NCBI GenBank assembly: GCA_044870765.1
Contig: JBIOZG010000035.1
Location: 19,382-83,381, forward strand
Direction of reading: 5' to 3'
Length of the DNA: 64,000 bases
Source: Nitrososphaeraceae archaeon
Lineage (GTDB): Archaea; Thermoproteota; Nitrososphaeria; Nitrososphaerales; Nitrososphaeraceae
A program made the translations under genes and the position numbers. Position 1 is the first letter of the stretch. Each line of letters opens with the position of its first letter. The notes beneath the pieces were generated by a model. The model ran no database searches. It was not told the origin of the DNA and saw only the letters and a program-made list of their open reading frames with translations. Shown here one piece after another: positions 12,654-22,619 of the stretch.

Positions 12654-14894
12654 TTATAATTCATTTGTCAACTTTAGTCCAAATGGTTCTGTGACAGAAT
12701 TACAGGTTTTTACCAATAACTCAGAATATCTTTTTGCATCATACACGGTCTTTGAATTTATCAATTCAACCGGGATGCTTCTTTTTCTCGAATTTTTCCG
12801 ATAATAATCGGTTAATACATATTTCAAAATCTGTCCTGATTTAAGCGATTTGCCTGCATGCTTTAATTGGAGTAATGCATCCAGTTCCACCGTATTCCTA
12901 TTTTTATACTCATCTACATCTTTAGATATCCTCTTTGTTAGAACCAAATCATTTATGGGAACCTTCTTATATCTTAAAAGTTCTAGATGCAATTGAAAAA
13001 ACTTTCTGACTTTTGGCATCAAATCTCTGACTTCTTTAATTGAATTAGCTTCTGACATTATGTTCAGGATTCCTTGTTGAACATTTGAAAAGAATTCGGC
13101 AGTGTCGTGTCTTCTTGCTTCAATTCCCCTCATTTTCACAGTTCCATCTTCAAAGACACCAAAGTAACGATTAGAAACTGGCAGAATAGTATTACTCTTT
13201 GAAGGAACAAATACAATCCACTTGTATATGCCTTCTAATGAAATTGGAAATCCTGTCTTGTTTTCTATTTCAGTTTTTAAACTTTTATAATCATTGTTTA
13301 CAACATTTTTCTTTTGTATCCATATGGAGTCTACTATGGCGTGAAGGATTTTAAATCCCTGTGATTCTGCTATCCTTACTGTTTGTAATATAATCTGTCT
13401 ATCAAAAGCGCATACTGCAATATGCGCATCTATTCTACCAAATTTGGCATTATTAAAACCTAGATAGCCAAAACTTGTAACTAAAACCCATTTGAGAGCA
13501 GTTTGTCTCGCATCATAAATCCTTTTTAATTCGGGATCTGTGGTTGAATTTCTCTTGTCTTTATAATGTGCTCTCTTTTTAAGTAATATTTCTAATGATA
13601 AAGGGACTATCCCTCTTCTTTTTTCACATATATGATAATTTAGTAATTCTGGAACACGTAACTTAGAATGAGAACAACAATTACAAATTACAGTCTCAGC
13701 AGATATATTTTTTTTAAACATTATAGTAGGATAAAGAGAAACAAAATCAAATTCAGCAACTTTTTCATGTGCGCCCATAATCGGTTCAAATATCAAACCA
13801 CCGCGATCGGCAATTAAAAGATCTCCAAGTGACTTTGGATGTTCTGCCAATGTGGGCTTCCATGGAATAAGTATATTGTTTCTCACGGCATTATAGAATT
13901 GTAGACTACTCATACACTTCCCAATAGAAGCTCTGGATGCTGAATGTAATGGCAATCTACAAATTCTGGCAAGTTCGTACAATCCTTGAAGACCAGACTC
14001 ATTTAGAACAAATGAATTATCTGTGTCAATATGTATTCTTCCAAGTAACTTTGTAGCTAATGGTTTAAAATACATCCTGCCATAAGAGAAATATGAGGTC
14101 CCATCTTTCTTAGGTTTGCATAAAGGTATACCCTCTCTATCTAGGACTAAATTTACCTGATTGATTTCCGATCTATGTGTCAGATAAGGAAATGTAAACG
14201 AATCTCCATATTCTGTGAGAATAAAGTCGGAATTAATTTTTTCTACTTCTTTAACAAGTTGATATAAAATATCTATTTCAGAACCCTGAATGTAAATAGT
14301 GTCTTTACTTGTGTCACCCTTTTGTATAGATACTAATGCAATTACATCTGTAAATCTATGTATCCTTCCTTCCTTTGTTTTTGGATATACTTTTAGGTGT
14401 ATGTTATTGAATAATGGTAACTCATATTCTGTAGACCACACATCATCTTCATTATCTATCCAATTGAGTGTTGAATTAGATACATGAACTTTACATTTCA
14501 TGAGGGGAAAAACATCATGTTCATAAAAATAGGATTGTTCTGGTAATATGTCTACATTATATAGTCGGCTTTGTCCAAATCTTCCCATTTTCTCAATTTT
14601 TTTTGCTAATTTTAACGCGTAGGTAGGATCTTTTAACTCCAGTTCAAGAACTTGGGATTTCTTCGTATCTGTTATCAATTCATATTTCGAGATAAAATGA
14701 TATTCTTTTACCATCGAAAGTATTTCATTATTCTCAATGACAGATTTTAATAAAGATTTTTCAGAAGCAACATAGATTTTATGATTCCAGCTTTTATCTT
14801 CCACTCTTATAGTTGTAGATGAATTATCTTTTTTTATCCAGAAAATCATGCTACCATTTAAAGCATATGCATCAAATAACCAACCAGATATCAT
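12654..14894 (-). CDS. polB2: Family B DNA polymerase, PolB2 group
   Basis: DFVSLYP (A), LKWVLVTSFGYLG (B), motif C altered to HAIVDS, CNCC...C insert, degenerate exonuclease region. Confidence 0.9.
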   Translation of the reverse strand: MISGWLFDAYALNGSMIFWIKKDNSSTTIRVEDKSWNHKIYVASEKSLLKSVIENNEILSMVKEYHFISKYELITDTKKSQVLELELKDPTYALKLAKKIEKMGRFGQSRLYNVDILPEQSYFYEHDVFPLMKCKVHVSNSTLNWIDNEDDVWSTEYELPLFNNIHLKVYPKTKEGRIHRFTDVIALVSIQKGDTSKDTIYIQGSEIDILYQLVKEVEKINSDFILTEYGDSFTFPYLTHRSEINQVNLVLDREGIPLCKPKKDGTSYFSYGRMYFKPLATKLLGRIHIDTDNSFVLNESGLQGLYELARICRLPLHSASRASIGKCMSSLQFYNAVRNNILIPWKPTLAEHPKSLGDLLIADRGGLIFEPIMGAHEKVAEFDFVSLYPTIMFKKNISAETVICNCCSHSKLRVPELLNYHICEKRRGIVPLSLEILLKKRAHYKDKRNSTTDPELKRIYDARQTALKWVLVTSFGYLGFNNAKFGRIDAHIAVCAFDRQIILQTVRIAESQGFKILHAIVDSIWIQKKNVVNNDYKSLKTEIENKTGFPISLEGIYKWIVFVPSKSNTILPVSNRYFGVFEDGTVKMRGIEARRHDTAEFFSNVQQGILNIMSEANSIKEVRDLMPKVRKFFQLHLELLRYKKVPINDLVLTKRISKDVDEYKNRNTVELDALLQLKHAGKSLKSGQILKYVLTDYYRKNSRKRSIPVELINSKTVYDAKRYSELLVKTCNSVTEPFGLKLTNEL

Positions 14895-15176: not shown

Positions 15177-16103
15177 TTAGAATTCAATCTTTCCTATTTT
15201 ACCATTCCGATAATCTTCCAAAGTTTTATCTATCTCTTCCCTGGTGTTCATAACAAATGGTCCGTACTGTACTATCGGTTCATTGAAAGGCATTCCAGCA
15301 ACAAGCAATACATCCAAAGGATTTTTATTATCAGATCTGATGGAAATGTATTTGCCGTCATTTTTGAATACTATCAAGTTCTTTTCTTGGACCGCTGTCT
15401 TATCTCTACCAAAAAGACCATTGCCACTAATAACATACGCAAAGGCATTAAAATTTTTAGGAACTGGCTGAAAAACCTCTGAATCTGGTTTTAGAGTAAA
15501 ATGCAAATACAAAATAGGAGTTAAAGTGTTAATTACCGCTTTTGTATCATGATAATTTCCTGCGATAACTTTAACTGATACTTTACCATCTGGTGTTCTT
15601 ATTAGAGGGATTTTTGCGGAAGGAACATCCTGGTAATCCGGTTTGATCCACTTGTCAATTTTGCGAAGATTTATCCATAATTGGAATCCATGTAACCTTC
15701 CTCCATTTTTGGCAAACTCTTTTTCAGGCATTTCTGAATGAACCAATCCAGAACCTGCTGTCATCCATTGCACGTCACCAGGTCCTAGCTTTCCCGAATT
15801 TCTCTGTGAATCTTTGTGTTCAAATCTTCCTTCGAGAATATATGTAACAGTCACAAAACCTCGATGGGGATGTTCCGGAAAACCTTTAGTCTCATATGGT
15901 AACAGATCTAGAGGACCCATCTCATCTAAAAGTAAAAAAGGGTCTAAATTCCGGATGGATTGTGAAGGGAAGCACCTGTGTACTACAAAACCATCACCTT
16001 CTGGAGTTTCGTTACTCTTTGTCACCAGTTTAATCGAGCGACTCTCGGTGCTAGTATCATTAGAACTTTGAGTGATGTCGATTTCTTTTCCAGTTTTTCT
16101 CAT
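15177..16103 (-). CDS. Pirin family protein
   Basis: DPFLLLDE, HPHRGF, WMTAGSGLVHSE, GPFVMNT. Confidence 0.95.
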   Translation of the reverse strand: MRKTGKEIDITQSSNDTSTESRSIKLVTKSNETPEGDGFVVHRCFPSQSIRNLDPFLLLDEMGPLDLLPYETKGFPEHPHRGFVTVTYILEGRFEHKDSQRNSGKLGPGDVQWMTAGSGLVHSEMPEKEFAKNGGRLHGFQLWINLRKIDKWIKPDYQDVPSAKIPLIRTPDGKVSVKVIAGNYHDTKAVINTLTPILYLHFTLKPDSEVFQPVPKNFNAFAYVISGNGLFGRDKTAVQEKNLIVFKNDGKYISIRSDNKNPLDVLLVAGMPFNEPIVQYGPFVMNTREEIDKTLEDYRNGKIGKIEF

Positions 16104-16270: not shown

Positions 16271-16648
16271 TTATTCTAGTGTTAGCGATATGACTAAAGG
16301 TCTGGTACTCCTAATCTTGTTGAATAGTCTAATGAAAGTCGTTAGTAAACCATATTTTTTGTTAATCAGGGAATACGCTATTGTCGACTCAGCCGAACCG
16401 GAAAACTTTGCTTTTCCGTCATACCAATCACCCTCCACATTTCCGCCAATATTGCAAGGAGCAATCTTAACATGCGGATTATTCCTAATCCTTTTGACCT
16501 TGCCTGACTTGGCATCGGTCCTAAAATAGATCAACCCTTGATTAACCACAAACCAAACGGGAGTTCTTACTCCAGTACCATTCTTCCTATACGTTTCAAT
16601 GCTAATGTACTTGTGTTTTGATAATTGAAATAGCTTATCCTCAGACAT
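16271..16648 (-). CDS. PPOX-class F420-dependent oxidoreductase
   Basis: ETYRKNGTGVRTPVWF, SGKVKRIRNNP. Confidence 0.9.
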   Translation of the reverse strand: MSEDKLFQLSKHKYISIETYRKNGTGVRTPVWFVVNQGLIYFRTDAKSGKVKRIRNNPHVKIAPCNIGGNVEGDWYDGKAKFSGSAESTIAYSLINKKYGLLTTFIRLFNKIRSTRPLVISLTLE

Positions 16649-17132
16649 GTATATCACTAAATATAGAGTACTTATTAGTGAATCTTTTTATTAATCAACT
16701 TCAAATCATCGCACTGACCGGGTGTGCAGGAATGAAGAGTCACAGTACTAAAATACAATCTGCATATTGCCGCGAGGTAGGCATAAAGGTTAGGCATTAG
16801 TAATATTAATCATCTAAGCCTAAACTTAGTATTACTCTTTTGACTTTATATTTCTGAAATTAAAATACAATGCCAAATCATAAATAATCTTGATTACACC
16901 ACCTAGCACAAATGACCTCAGAATTCTTGCTGCAAGTAACAACTTTCCATCTCTTGAAAGCCAGTTGAGGAAAAAACTCATAGAATAGACTTATGGTGGT
17001 GACTGATCTGATACCAATACTAGTACAGGGATTAATCTCCTGCTAAAAATTATGAATGAAGATGCTCTATGTTTCAGCATAGTCGTCATTAATGGTACTT
17101 TAAATAGAATTGATAAATTCTATCTTTTAAGT

Positions 17133-17423: not shown

Positions 17424-17838
17424 GGGTAATTATCATCACGGTACAATAAAAATTTCACTGCCTTATGCAGTCAGTTCTGGCTTATTAGCGAGCCTTATTA
17501 ACGAACTTCGTGAATAAAAATCAAGATAGATGAATTAACAGGCCATGGAATTAGAGTATATTATTACATCCATTCTCCATACAAGCTACAATTGTCTACA
17601 ACCATTATTGTGTTTGAAAACTCGAATTTTCATTATCTTCTCACTTATTCCTGTTCTAGGAACGCGAGCCATGAGAAATTTGAATCAAGTTGCAACTGAC
17701 ATCCTCATACGTGTTGGTCTATCTTAATGCAATCAGGAATATTGAATACGTAAACATATGCGCAATAAATAACGTCTCGTTCGACTCGTAGCTTTACATA
17801 TCGCAAATTCAATATAAGCAAATTTGTATAGACATTGT

Positions 17839-18825
17839 ATGCTTGATGATCTGGTCAAAGACAGGGTAGATAATAAGAATCCGCGTCAGGAAGGATTAAC
17901 GCTTACAGTGGACAAACTCGAATCCTTTGATAGAGAGAATTTTGAGATCCTATCAAGATTCATTGATCAAATCAAGATATACAACACTTATCCTTTGTTA
18001 ATAACTGATAATCTTCTTCAGAAGAGGATATCTTACTACCATCAGCTTGATATAGACGTATCCACCGGCAGTACGCTCACAGAGTACGCAATATCAGAAA
18101 ATTCCCTTGACAAGTTCATAACAGAATGTAGCAGAATCGGCTTTGACATAATTGAAATTGGTGAAAACAGTATTGATCTAGATATTGATAAAAAGAAAAG
18201 AATATCTGATTCCATACTTTCTGCAGACTTAAAACTTAACTGGAAGATTGGTAAAAAAGATCCTAGACATCAGATTGGTATTGATACCACACTTTTGAAG
18301 ATTGATGATGCAATAAAACTGGGTTCAAAAAAAGTTATCCTTGAGGCCAACGAGGGTATCAATGTTGGTATTTATGATCAAAACGGTTCTATAATTTGGA
18401 ATTACGTTGCAGCGCTTACTGCAAAATATCCACCCAATACTTTTATTTTTGAAGCGCCATTAGCATCGCAACAATCTGCATTGTTAGCAGAATTTGGTCA
18501 AAGAGTGAACCTTGCTGAAATTACAATTGAAAATGTTGCTTCAGTAGAATCTCAACGGCGTGGATTTCTCTCCAAATCATCTTTTGGTATGACTTTCTCA
18601 CAAAAGGAAATAGGTGGAAGTCCTGCATCGAAGTTTATCTATTATCTAATTAAAACAAAGCATCCAATAGAGCAAAGTGATTTAATTGGTATTACCCGTT
18701 TGCCCAGAAGGACAGTACAAAGTGCAATAGAAGACTTAAGGAATCAGGGTTTTATTATTGAACGAAATAGCTTGGATGACAGTAGAAGAAAGGTGTATTA
18801 TCCCGTCAAATCAGAATGGTTATGA
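17839..18825 (+). CDS. ComA (phosphosulfolactate synthase)-like domain fused to C-terminal winged HTH
   Basis: GSTLTE, IGKKD, FEAP..QQ, VNLAEI, ESQRRG; C-terminal SPASKFIY...LPRRTVQSAIEDL...DSRRKVY. Confidence 0.85.
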   Translation: MLDDLVKDRVDNKNPRQEGLTLTVDKLESFDRENFEILSRFIDQIKIYNTYPLLITDNLLQKRISYYHQLDIDVSTGSTLTEYAISENSLDKFITECSRIGFDIIEIGENSIDLDIDKKKRISDSILSADLKLNWKIGKKDPRHQIGIDTTLLKIDDAIKLGSKKVILEANEGINVGIYDQNGSIIWNYVAALTAKYPPNTFIFEAPLASQQSALLAEFGQRVNLAEITIENVASVESQRRGFLSKSSFGMTFSQKEIGGSPASKFIYYLIKTKHPIEQSDLIGITRLPRRTVQSAIEDLRNQGFIIERNSLDDSRRKVYYPVKSEWL

Positions 18826-19076
18826 ACATTCAAAAGTTTCTAAACAGATAATATTTATCTAGATACTTTTGAGAGTAACATGTTTTGCTTGTCTGCTTAA
18901 TACTAGCGATTTAATCGAAATTGAAATAACACCTAGGATAGGAAAATTTCAGTTTTGCAATATTTGCTTATGTCCTTCAAATCTGTCTATCTCATAAATT
19001 GTGCATTTTATGCATATTTTATTAAAATTATGCACATTTGCAAGTATTCAAATATGCTTTGATTTAGGTAGAAAAC

Positions 19077-20222
19077 ATGAAAAATAGATTAAGAATCACG
19101 GCAGTGATGACTATATTACTTATAGCCGGATTTATTATAACACCATTGCTCTCAAATCTGGCATATGCACAGTTATCTCAAAAAAAGGTATTTAGACTAG
19201 GATACTTTCCGAACATTAATCACGCGCAAGCATTAATCGGAGTAGGAAATGGAGACTATCAGAAAGTTTTAGGAAATAATATAGAGTTGAAGACTTTAAC
19301 GTTTAATGCTGGCCCCTCGGCTACAGAAGCCCTGTTGGCAAATCAAATCGATGCAGCGTACATAGGTCCAAACCCCACGGTCAATGGTTATGTAGTTTCT
19401 GAAGGTAAGGCTCTCAGAGTTATATCTGGAGTAGCAAGTGGCGGCGCTGTCTTTATAGTAAGAAATGATTCTGGTATTCAGTCTACAAAAGACTTTGCCG
19501 GTAAAAAATTCGCATCACCACAAATAGGAAACACCCAGGACGTAGCATTGAGGAAATATTTACTTGATAACGGATTCAAAACAAAGGACAAAGGTGGAAA
19601 CGTTGAGGTTCTGCCCATAAAGAATCCTGATATTTTGACACTGTTCTTAAAGAAAGAAATCGATGGAGCTTGGGTCCCTGAACCTTGGGGTGAAAAACTC
19701 ATCAAGGAAGGCAATGGTAGATTATTTTTGGATGAACGAAGTCTATGGCCTGCAGATAAATTTGTTACTGCAAACATAATCGTTAATCCCGAATATCTTA
19801 AAAATAATCCTGATGTAATAAAGAAGTTTTTGGAAGCACATGTAAATGAGACACAGTGGATAAATGGGCATAAAGAAGAAGCCTTGAAGACTTTCAATTT
19901 TGAACTAAAAAAACTTACAGGTCAAACTATTCCAGATGATCAACTAAAGGAAGCTTTCTCAAGGCTCGAGCTAACCTACGATCCCTTGCAAGAAACACTC
20001 ATCAAATCTGCAAACGATGCATTTGAAATAGGATATCTCGGAAAAACGAAACCTAACCTTAGTGGACTTTACGACCTGAAAATTCTCAATGAAATACTGA
20101 AAGAAAAAGGACTTCAAGGCATCACGGGCCCAGAAAATCAAACCACTGTTGGTAGTAACGCTTCTTCAGGAAACACGATACCCACATTGACAGCCAACTC
20201 GAGATATACAATCGTAGCATAG
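19077..20222 (+). CDS. Aliphatic sulfonate/nitrate-type ABC substrate-binding protein (SsuA-like)
   Basis: RLGYFPNINHA, FNAGP, YIGPNP, GNTQDVALR, WVPEPW; signal peptide. Confidence 0.9.
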   Translation: MKNRLRITAVMTILLIAGFIITPLLSNLAYAQLSQKKVFRLGYFPNINHAQALIGVGNGDYQKVLGNNIELKTLTFNAGPSATEALLANQIDAAYIGPNPTVNGYVVSEGKALRVISGVASGGAVFIVRNDSGIQSTKDFAGKKFASPQIGNTQDVALRKYLLDNGFKTKDKGGNVEVLPIKNPDILTLFLKKEIDGAWVPEPWGEKLIKEGNGRLFLDERSLWPADKFVTANIIVNPEYLKNNPDVIKKFLEAHVNETQWINGHKEEALKTFNFELKKLTGQTIPDDQLKEAFSRLELTYDPLQETLIKSANDAFEIGYLGKTKPNLSGLYDLKILNEILKEKGLQGITGPENQTTVGSNASSGNTIPTLTANSRYTIVA

Positions 20223-22046: not shown

Positions 22047-22619
22047 ATGGTCTTGAATGCAACAAAAAACCTCAAGCAAGATCACGTTCTAGTAAATCGA
22101 CTTGGTAGAATAGCAAAGAAATGTTCTGATCTCTTATATGACAACTCAGATATTCCTATAGAAGATATCAAAATAATATCAATGCTTATTCAGGAATTTG
22201 TTGATAAATTACATCATGGTAAGGAAGAAAAGGCATATTTCCCACAAATGAACGAAAAAAATAACTTTTCTGAGGAGATACGAAAATTCTTAATAGAACA
22301 TGAACTGGGCAGAAGAATAGCAAAGATGTTAGTTCAAAGTTTAGTATCTTGGGAAGACGGACCTAATTCTAGGGAAAGAGTAGCTAGATTCTTGAAGGCA
22401 TATTCGGTATTCATAAGTACACATACTGAAAAAGAGGATTTATTCTTTGATCTTATTGAGGAAAATGGTATTCTCTCTGAAGAAGAACATTCTCAATTAA
22501 TAGGACGTTATAAATATTGTAATAGCGAGGTTGGAGGTAAAGTTAGAGTTGAACAAATGATAAAACTAATTGGATATCTTGAAGATAGAGTATGGATGAA
22601 AACTGATACTAATATATAG
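22047..22619 (+). CDS. Hemerythrin/HHE domain protein
   Basis: DH, HHGKEE, EHELGR, HTEKED. Confidence 0.9.
   Translation: MVLNATKNLKQDHVLVNRLGRIAKKCSDLLYDNSDIPIEDIKIISMLIQEFVDKLHHGKEEKAYFPQMNEKNNFSEEIRKFLIEHELGRRIAKMLVQSLVSWEDGPNSRERVARFLKAYSVFISTHTEKEDLFFDLIEENGILSEEEHSQLIGRYKYCNSEVGGKVRVEQMIKLIGYLEDRVWMKTDTNI

Follow-up and report, generated by a model that had tools for sequence, protein, structure and literature searches.

Regulators of the ThiR, BirA and NadR type carry an enzyme or former enzyme domain as the effector module of a transcription factor, although their folds and ligands are other ones and none of them is known to use the fold of ComA, the phosphosulfolactate synthase that adds sulfite to phosphoenolpyruvate (PEP). 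In archaea the best comparison is RbkR, a riboflavin kinase joined to a winged helix that occurs in Thaumarchaeota among others; RbkR regulates an uptake transporter and its own gene, and its DNA binding is controlled by a metabolite of its own enzyme reaction (PMC5397151). A survey gives 5.79% as the share of archaeal transcription factors that also have enzymatic activity, and a term search of its main text returned no mention of ComA (PMC8253408). Here we describe a gene from a Nitrososphaeraceae archaeon in which a ComA-type barrel is followed by a winged helix-turn-helix (wHTH). It lies at 17839-18825 on the forward strand of a stretch of 64,000 nucleotides (nt) with about 35% G+C, hereafter the window (GCA_044870765.1, contig JBIOZG010000035.1, positions 19,382 to 83,381), next to a gene for an ABC transporter substrate-binding protein (SBP). 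This gene of a soil ammonia oxidiser, annotated only as an enzyme, probably encodes an undescribed sulfur-sensing switch. As for its exact nature, the evidence tips modestly towards a one-component transcription factor that senses a sulfur compound.

ComA-wHTH shares with RbkR the union of an enzyme domain and a winged helix in one archaeal chain, conserved across species. It differs in enzyme fold and pathway, and whereas the kinase activity of RbkR has been demonstrated and its DNA complex solved (PMC5397151), ComA-wHTH is a predicted regulator. The original prediction had known of no characterised example of such a protein; with RbkR on record this was too broad for the combination of enzyme domain and wHTH, and it appears to stand for the use of the ComA fold. 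Our literature searches, which covered papers without their supplements, found none that treats a fusion of ComA with an HTH or deals with ComA of ammonia oxidisers, and for the ComA structure 1QWG they returned only scaffold and design uses. What appears undescribed is the ComA fold as sensor, together with its sulfur context and its broad distribution in archaea; the design of an enzyme-fold sensor with a wHTH is known.

The open reading frame (ORF) encodes 328 amino acids (aa). A TTG at 17824 offers an alternative start that would give 333 aa; we favour 17839 because a TATA-like TTCAATATA lies at 17808-17816, about 27 nt 5' of the ATG. Among the best 120 of 1155 relatives found by a word-indexed search, nearly all are also 328 aa long, with 85-98% identity, and wherever the source gives a name it is "phosphosulfolactate synthase", assigned automatically. 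Residues 12-244 match the Pfam family ComA (PF02679) with 206 bits (E 8e-61, cut-off 25.2). An AlphaFold2 (AF2) model of the full protein, built on an alignment of 50 sequences, reached a predicted local distance difference test score (pLDDT) of 90.3 and comprises a TIM barrel, a linker (245-261) and a helix-helix-helix-strand-strand unit (262-322). Searched whole with Foldseek, it matched ComA of Methanocaldococcus jannaschii (MJ0255, 1qwg) at E 3.6e-22 and a target-normalised TM-score (TMt) of 0.86, and the phosphosulfolactate synthase YitD of Bacillus subtilis (1u83) superposed on the barrel at TMt 0.84. The Pfam match and the modelled folds bear out the predicted order of a ComA-like barrel and a wHTH of about 65 aa. 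ComA-wHTH thus resembles ComA in Pfam family, fold, predicted trimer interface and 21 of 35 conserved residues. It differs in its C-terminal domain, its place outside the main ComA clade, seven replaced near-invariant residues, a score below the NCBIfam equivalog cut-off and a source genome that has no comB or comC matches.

These residues were compared in an alignment of 92 full-length representatives of a 50%-identity library, 71 stand-alone and 21 fused, in which we scored the 35 columns most conserved among stand-alone ComA (commonest residue in 54-71 of the 71). The window protein deviates at 14 of the 35, against a stand-alone median of 2 and maximum of 13 (n=71). It keeps R16, D25, D43, K46, T79, E82, E106, K140, E169, E172, E205, Q211, Q212, N224 and R240, among others, and has lost, among others, G50, T51, G78, S108, G110 and T247, as well as E136, R171, N227 and R244, which are replaced by K, N, E and L, respectively. 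The retained K140 aligns with K137 of M. jannaschii, which we take to be the proposed general acid of ComA. Four altered motifs named in the original prediction hold against the M. jannaschii protein: VKFGWGT reads IKIYNTY, EVGKK reads KIGKK, IIEGRESG reads ILEANE-G and RRGLRGDT reads RRGFLSKS. Seven of the replaced residues are near-invariant in ComA (G78S, S108G, G110N, E136K, R171N, N227E and R244L), and apart from one truncated member of the clade (P0123), none of the 70 other stand-alone proteins has two or more of the derived states. The fetched loci gave 52 full-length sequences from Nitrososphaeria, with 54-100% identity to the window protein. In these, N171 and L244 occur in all 52, G108 and N110 in 51 each, S78 in 50, K136 in 46 and E227 in 43; clade-specific motifs such as KDPRHQ are conserved across the same set. 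Because the derived residues are fixed across these relatives, we read them as a re-tuned pocket under purifying selection, not as decay. The barrel had been called degenerate; the word suits the 14 changed positions, but not the 21 that are kept or the fixation of the derived states. Across the fused family the number of deviations runs from 3 (P0138, P0160) to 22 (P0132), and many fused relatives are near-canonical, with 3-5.

The fusion is found well beyond this assembly. Patterns matched 166 stretches in GTDB species genomes, and a relative is encoded at 60 loci, all but one of them in metagenome-assembled genomes of Nitrososphaerota or Thermoproteota, some of which have two or three paralogs. 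In a survey of the class (301 sampled genomes; a full-length copy was one with E below 1e-100), full-length copies occur in 32 of the 38 genomes of the archaeon's own family, in 6 of 181 of its sister family f2, where one copy is broken, in 1 of 9 of family f3 and in 1 of 4 of family f5. Two genomes of the same genus (G230, G289) seem to be without the gene; this was rejected as a sign of loss, since the contig breaks off 583 and 466 nt, respectively, from the SBP gene. Fused representatives at only 26-41% identity are 304-340 aa long and can be aligned through the wHTH; relatives of P0138 belong, where named, to Korarchaeota and Thermoplasmata and have precomputed TrmB or MarR_2 matches. A quick tree calculated for the barrel by maximum likelihood (LG+G4, 114 rows) places 68 of the 71 stand-alone ComA proteins in one clade (Shimodaira-Hasegawa-like approximate likelihood ratio test 99), with all fused forms outside it and a support of 98 for the Nitrososphaeria branch; the tree is unrooted, midpoint-rooted for drawing only, and leaves the order of fusion and split unset. 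Judged from these sequences, ComA-wHTH is an old archaeal clade that includes Thermoplasmata and Korarchaeota, and not an assembly artefact.

The C-terminal domain has the build of a MarR-type DNA-binding unit. Folded alone it reached pLDDT 89.1, its best Foldseek match was the MarR-family protein 3bpv (query-normalised TM-score, TMq, 0.85; root-mean-square deviation 1.1 A over 67 columns), and DNA-bound MepR, FabT and MftR structures were also among the matches. The models show the order H1-H2-H3-strand-wing-strand. Relatives have precomputed HTH matches (PF08279, PF01978, PF12802). Within Nitrososphaeria conservation is higher in the wHTH (0.82) than in the barrel (0.76), and over the whole protein it peaks at the third helix and wing. 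The third-helix motif LPRRT(V/I) is conserved throughout the fused family, which argues for a single origin of the fusion. MarR/SlyA proteins (3bpv, 4mnu and the MepR-DNA complex 4lln) share with the domain a wHTH core (TMq 0.74-0.85) and, in the wing, the D-x-R-type motif, here SLDDSRRKVYY. Unlike them, ComA-wHTH has only the core of about 65 aa, lacks the flanking helices that form the MarR dimer at either end (in the AF2 model no helix follows residue 322), and scores 13.5 bits against a MarR_2 cut-off of 27. With the dimerisation helices missing, oligomerisation must come from the barrel.

A related winged helix was met in another protein. At two loci (L062:1077-2213 in G116 and L063:1059-2159 in G210) an NAD kinase has a C-terminal MarR-type wHTH (Pfam NAD_kinase_C and MarR_2) that resembles the one described here down to the wing motif SL.D.R.K.Y. 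This second fusion probably accounts for the weak matches to residues 254-326 in most of the sampled f2 and f3 genomes.

The sensor barrel is probably a ComA-like trimer, as far as modelling goes. A three-copy prediction of the full-length protein scored 0.81 (best of 3 controls, 0.00), with runs agreeing in at least 70% of contacts and partner pLDDT of at least 81. Among proteins of solved structure, 20 of 30 one-chain pairs and 1 of 23 single chains attained the mark, counts that apply only roughly here, where an own alignment was used and three copies rather than two were modelled. In the predicted interface, residues 26-32, 49-60 and 79-100 of one subunit face 230-246 and 29-41 of its neighbour, and the substituted positions 27, 50, 51, 243 and 244 fall within it. 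ComA is a solved trimer (1qwg), and a designed icosahedral particle (9cm1) is built from it. Because ComA has already been solved, the pass may come from the predictor's memory and shows ComA likeness rather than trimerisation.

When ORFs within 5 kb of ComA-wHTH were clustered over 57 loci, the SBP proved the commonest neighbour, present at 36 loci (downstream on the same strand in 18, divergent in 10, convergent in 5, upstream on the same strand in 3), whereas the next cluster occurred in 14. Contig ends truncate several of the 21 loci that lack it: L011 and L014 have a partial SBP, and L023-26 and L030 have less than 550 nt upstream. Of the 49 full-length copies in species-representative genomes, 37 share their contig with an SBP match no more than 5 kb away. 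At L030-35 and L047 the cluster also contains genes for an ABC permease and an ATPase, which make it complete; in the source genome their orthologs are dispersed, the permease on contig C54 and the ATPase on C48. A broken pair was also seen: at G290:C40:13764-15636 a ComA-wHTH gene interrupted by TAA stands beside a divergent SBP gene likewise interrupted by TAA, with an intact SBP elsewhere in that genome, which looks like joint decay of regulator and target.

The promoter of the SBP gene is where a candidate operator was recognised. In 14 aligned SBP promoters from different gene arrangements, the only conserved part is an island between about -85 and -20, which holds a block with a putative TFB-recognition element (BRE) and TATA box, TTTG(C/A)AAG...TCAAATAT, and abutting TGC(A/G)(T/C)AT boxes about 20 bp apart. 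Since the TATA-like boxes lie about 25-27 nt 5' of both ATGs, the ComA-wHTH and SBP transcripts appear to be leaderless. The exact form TGCA-N5-TGCA occurs in 10 of 37 SBP upstream-150 regions and in 8 of the 53 regions upstream of ComA-wHTH, where it sits between -24 and -30 and so coincides with the TATA box or closely follows it; the source genome has 14 such sites in 432 kb of non-ORF DNA, so that about 0.2 would be expected for each set. We regard an operator of TGCA boxes as no more than plausible. Upstream of ComA-wHTH itself, 25 nt at 17742-17766 are 72% complementary to the SBP promoter block 19027-19051 and share TTGAATAC with it; this could be a minus-strand promoter-like element, and it is partly conserved in close relatives.

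Scans of the source genome with these boxes brought out no sulfur regulon beyond the SBP gene. At least two TGC[AG][TC]AT boxes occur in 3 of 1785 upstream-120 regions, those of the SBP, a ParA-like ATPase and a CoA-transferase gene. Of the 14 intergenic TGCA-N5-TGCA sites, five lie at most 200 nt upstream of an ORF, four of these ORFs encoding the SBP, a PsbP-like protein, a succinyl-CoA-ligase-like protein and a PhoU_div protein. Genome-wide, TGCA-N5-TGCA is in excess (81 sites, vs 36 for N4 and 37 for N6); 67 of the 81 are coding, and we attribute the excess to codon periodicity rather than to a global regulator.

More distant members of the family were surveyed by scanning metagenome contigs with an alignment of the fused proteins from outside Nitrososphaeria; 80 loci were kept and 74 analysed as fused-type, although ORF calling was crude in G+C-rich loci and the ComA ORF itself was clustered in 44 of the 74. 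Recurrent neighbours were an alkaline phosphatase (AP)-superfamily phosphodiesterase (PDE; 14 loci), a short-chain dehydrogenase/reductase (SDR) directly downstream (11), ATP sulfurylase (Sat; 9), adenosine 5'-phosphosulfate (APS) kinase (CysC; 6), a TauE/SafE exporter (3) and an SsuABC-like set (3). Divergent from ComA-wHTH stand Sat-PDE-CysC in L119, L122, L128 and L130, TauE in L117, and SBP-ATPase-permease in L115 and L142. In at least three distant lineages, then, the fusion adjoins genes for sulfate activation, for sulfite or sulfonate export, or for sulfonate import. This sulfur context is strong and fits a sulfite- or sulfonate-sensing regulator. A near-canonical ComA-wHTH stands together with ATP sulfurylase, APS kinase, the phosphodiesterase and the SDR in L119, L122, L128, L130, L076 and L082; such clusters could constitute a ComB/ComC-independent route to a sulfonated C3 acid.

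The mechanism that we propose has the ComA-derived TIM barrel as sensor and the MarR-like winged helix as output. The barrel, with the two conserved lysines of the family and most of its carboxylates retained, would no longer serve as a phosphosulfolactate synthase within a pathway and would instead bind a small sulfur compound, either sulfite or a C2/C3 sulfonate such as sulfolactate. The loss of two arginines and the change of a Glu to Lys hint that the phosphate or charge pattern of the ligand differs from those of PEP and phosphosulfolactate, which would favour sulfite or an unphosphorylated sulfonate. Occupancy of the barrel would alter the affinity or geometry of the winged helix at the TGCA boxes that abut the BRE/TATA block of the SBP gene and so tune sulfonate uptake. 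The position of the boxes would permit either recruitment or occlusion of the TATA-binding protein and transcription factor B. Some relatives have the boxes at the promoter of the regulator gene as well.

Several observations weigh against this proposal. The 21 ComA residues retained would leave catalysis possible, and the similar wHTH of the NAD kinase is borne by what is presumably an active enzyme. A trimeric core would be an unusual partner for MarR-type domains, which are usually dimers. The SBP gene is independent of the regulator, being present in most relatives that have no ComA-wHTH (169 of 181 in f2). The box motif was derived from the very promoters in which it was counted, and the loci are related, perhaps four independent lineages per set, so that the enrichment is overstated. 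The exact box is absent from the window's own ComA-wHTH promoter, which has only a degenerate version, and no obvious boxes were seen upstream of the permease and ATPase orthologs dispersed on C54 and C48. Across the wider family, sampled at 69 metagenome loci, the box was only weakly enriched (14 observed; shuffle mean 6.5, standard deviation 2.7, maximum 15); with so marginal an enrichment, its generalisation to distant loci was unconvincing and was given up.

An unlikely but serious alternative is a bifunctional enzyme-regulator in the manner of RbkR or BirA, whose barrel would still add sulfite to PEP or run a related reaction, substrate or product controlling DNA binding, as a reaction-based sensor of sulfite. 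It draws on the RbkR precedent (PMC5397151), on the NAD kinase as a second enzyme that carries such a wHTH, and on the retention of K46, K140, E169, E172, E205, Q211/Q212 and R240. It also draws on the many fused relatives with 3-5 deviations that stand in apparent operons with ATP sulfurylase, APS kinase, phosphodiesterase and SDR; since the fusion is old and many members are near-canonical, the ancestral form may have been of this kind. In the ammonia-oxidiser clade, the seven replacements, which include two arginines and a Glu-to-Lys reversal, speak against it, as does the score for the NCBIfam arch_ComA equivalog (TIGR03849), 164.4 bits against a cut-off of 280. Nor were pathway partners found that would use the product. 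An intact comA elsewhere had been something to look for, and the source genome (2.0 Mb, 59 contigs, 96.65% complete) has a single ComA match, which is this gene; it gave 0 matches to ComB (PF04029) and 0 to ComC/Ldh_2 (PF02615), while the positive controls were matched in 7 and 5 of 14 named genomes, respectively. The bifunctional explanation suits the near-canonical members from Thermoplasmata and Korarchaeota better than it does the ammonia-oxidiser clade.

A bolder scenario we regard as a long shot. All these proteins would be pan-archaeal sulfur-status regulators whose barrel traps sulfite on PEP, and the phosphosulfolactate so bound would switch a trimeric factor with three winged helices on phased TGCA boxes, controlling Sat/CysC, TauE or SsuABC. 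In the ammonia oxidisers, turnover would then have been lost, and the protein would now do no more than sense sulfonate from the environment.

We think it quite improbable that ComA-wHTH is a plain metabolic enzyme, such as a diverged sulfonate synthase or lyase, whose winged helix serves assembly or protein contacts instead of DNA. This would agree with the name that every source gives, automatic as it is, with the absence of the MarR dimerisation helices and with the Pfam matches of residues 265-324, all of which are sub-threshold (HTH_11 18.5, cut-off 25; TrmB 14, cut-off 25.6; MarR_2, as given above). Set against it are the DNA-binding MarR proteins, DNA complexes included, among the best structural matches of the domain, the conservation peak at the third helix and wing, and the divergent layouts with transporter or sulfate-activation genes, which are typical of a regulator and its target. 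Equally doubtful is a regulator of a non-sulfur signal, with an SBP for the import of another substrate (nitrate, bicarbonate or a thiamine pyrimidine, say) and a barrel that senses a phospho- or carboxy-acid such as PEP: the NMT1 superfamily does cover several substrates, the Pfam matches of the SBP include NMT1_2, NMT1/THI5 and Phosphonate-bd, and the nearest non-ComA folds to the barrel in Foldseek are PEP mutase and isocitrate lyase-type enzymes, but the SBP passes the NCBIfam SsuA subfamily cut-off (TIGR01728; 187.6 bits vs 163.5), distant members have independent sulfur contexts (Sat, CysC, TauE), and a rhodanese gene lies nearby in close relatives.

A sulfur-sensing ComA-wHTH would matter in several respects. 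To our knowledge, little is established on how archaea regulate sulfur acquisition, our searches found no paper on this in ammonia-oxidising archaea, and the family offers a concrete candidate. Its SsuA-type proposed target bears on the use of organosulfur by soil nitrifiers. With more than 1000 sequences labelled "phosphosulfolactate synthase", annotation pipelines may wrongly infer coenzyme M or sulfolactate biosynthesis in Nitrososphaeria, Thermoplasmata and Korarchaeota. In addition, barrels that range from near-canonical to strongly altered on one type of DNA-binding domain form a natural series for the transition from enzyme to sensor.

Table 1. Features of the ComA-wHTH locus and its surroundings, in positions of the window.
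Feature	Position	Strand	Basis
ComA-wHTH gene (P0001)	17839..18825	+	ORF and translation; homologs of 328 aa
ComA-type TIM barrel, residues 12-244, 14 of 35 conserved ComA positions changed	17872..18570	+	Pfam, NCBIfam, Foldseek, residue table
Linker, residues 245-261	18571..18621	+	Low confidence, pLDDT 60-64 in AF2 model
MarR-like winged helix-turn-helix, residues 262-322, LPRRT of third helix invariant	18622..18804	+	Secondary structure, Foldseek, conservation
TATA-like box of putative ComA-wHTH promoter, TTCAATATA	17808..17816	+	Sequence, conserved across relatives
Candidate operator abutting SBP BRE/TATA: TGCA-N5-TGCA (19002-19014), dyad ATGCATATTTTATTAAAATTATGCAC (19010-19035), TGCA-N4-TGCA (19031-19042)	19002..19042	.	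Sequence, conserved island
Putative BRE/TATA-like SBP promoter, TTTGCAAGTATTCAAATAT, about 25 nt 5' of ATG	19036..19055	+	Near-invariant block
SsuA-family (aliphatic sulfonate type) ABC SBP gene, proposed target	19077..20222	+	NCBIfam, Pfam, linkage
Rhodanese and metallo-beta-lactamase-fold (MBL) protein, 419 aa	20423..21685	-	Pfam; beside SBP gene in 13 close loci
746-aa ORF	12654-14894	-	
Pirin	15177-16103	-	
PNPOx-like	16271-16657	-	
Hemerythrin-domain	22047-22619	+	

Directly 3' of the ComA-wHTH stop codon, an inverted repeat spans 18830-18872 (21 nt, 81% complementary, 1-nt spacer) and may act as a terminator hairpin or as another site for a protein. Four RNA libraries (X15-X18), which come from three studies, gave contigs that match the ComA-wHTH and SBP genes at 95-99%; RNA libraries can contain DNA, and the matches are at most a hint of expression. 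The intergenic parts have no contig in X17 and X18, coverage holes that prove nothing.

Around these genes, the rhodanese-MBL protein is reminiscent of sulfurtransferase/persulfide-dioxygenase fusions, a sulfur context found in close relatives only. The pirin, PNPOx-like and hemerythrin-domain genes and the 746-aa ORF at the flanks (Table 1) are syntenic in the closest relatives only, and the long ORF looks by eye like a family-B DNA polymerase.

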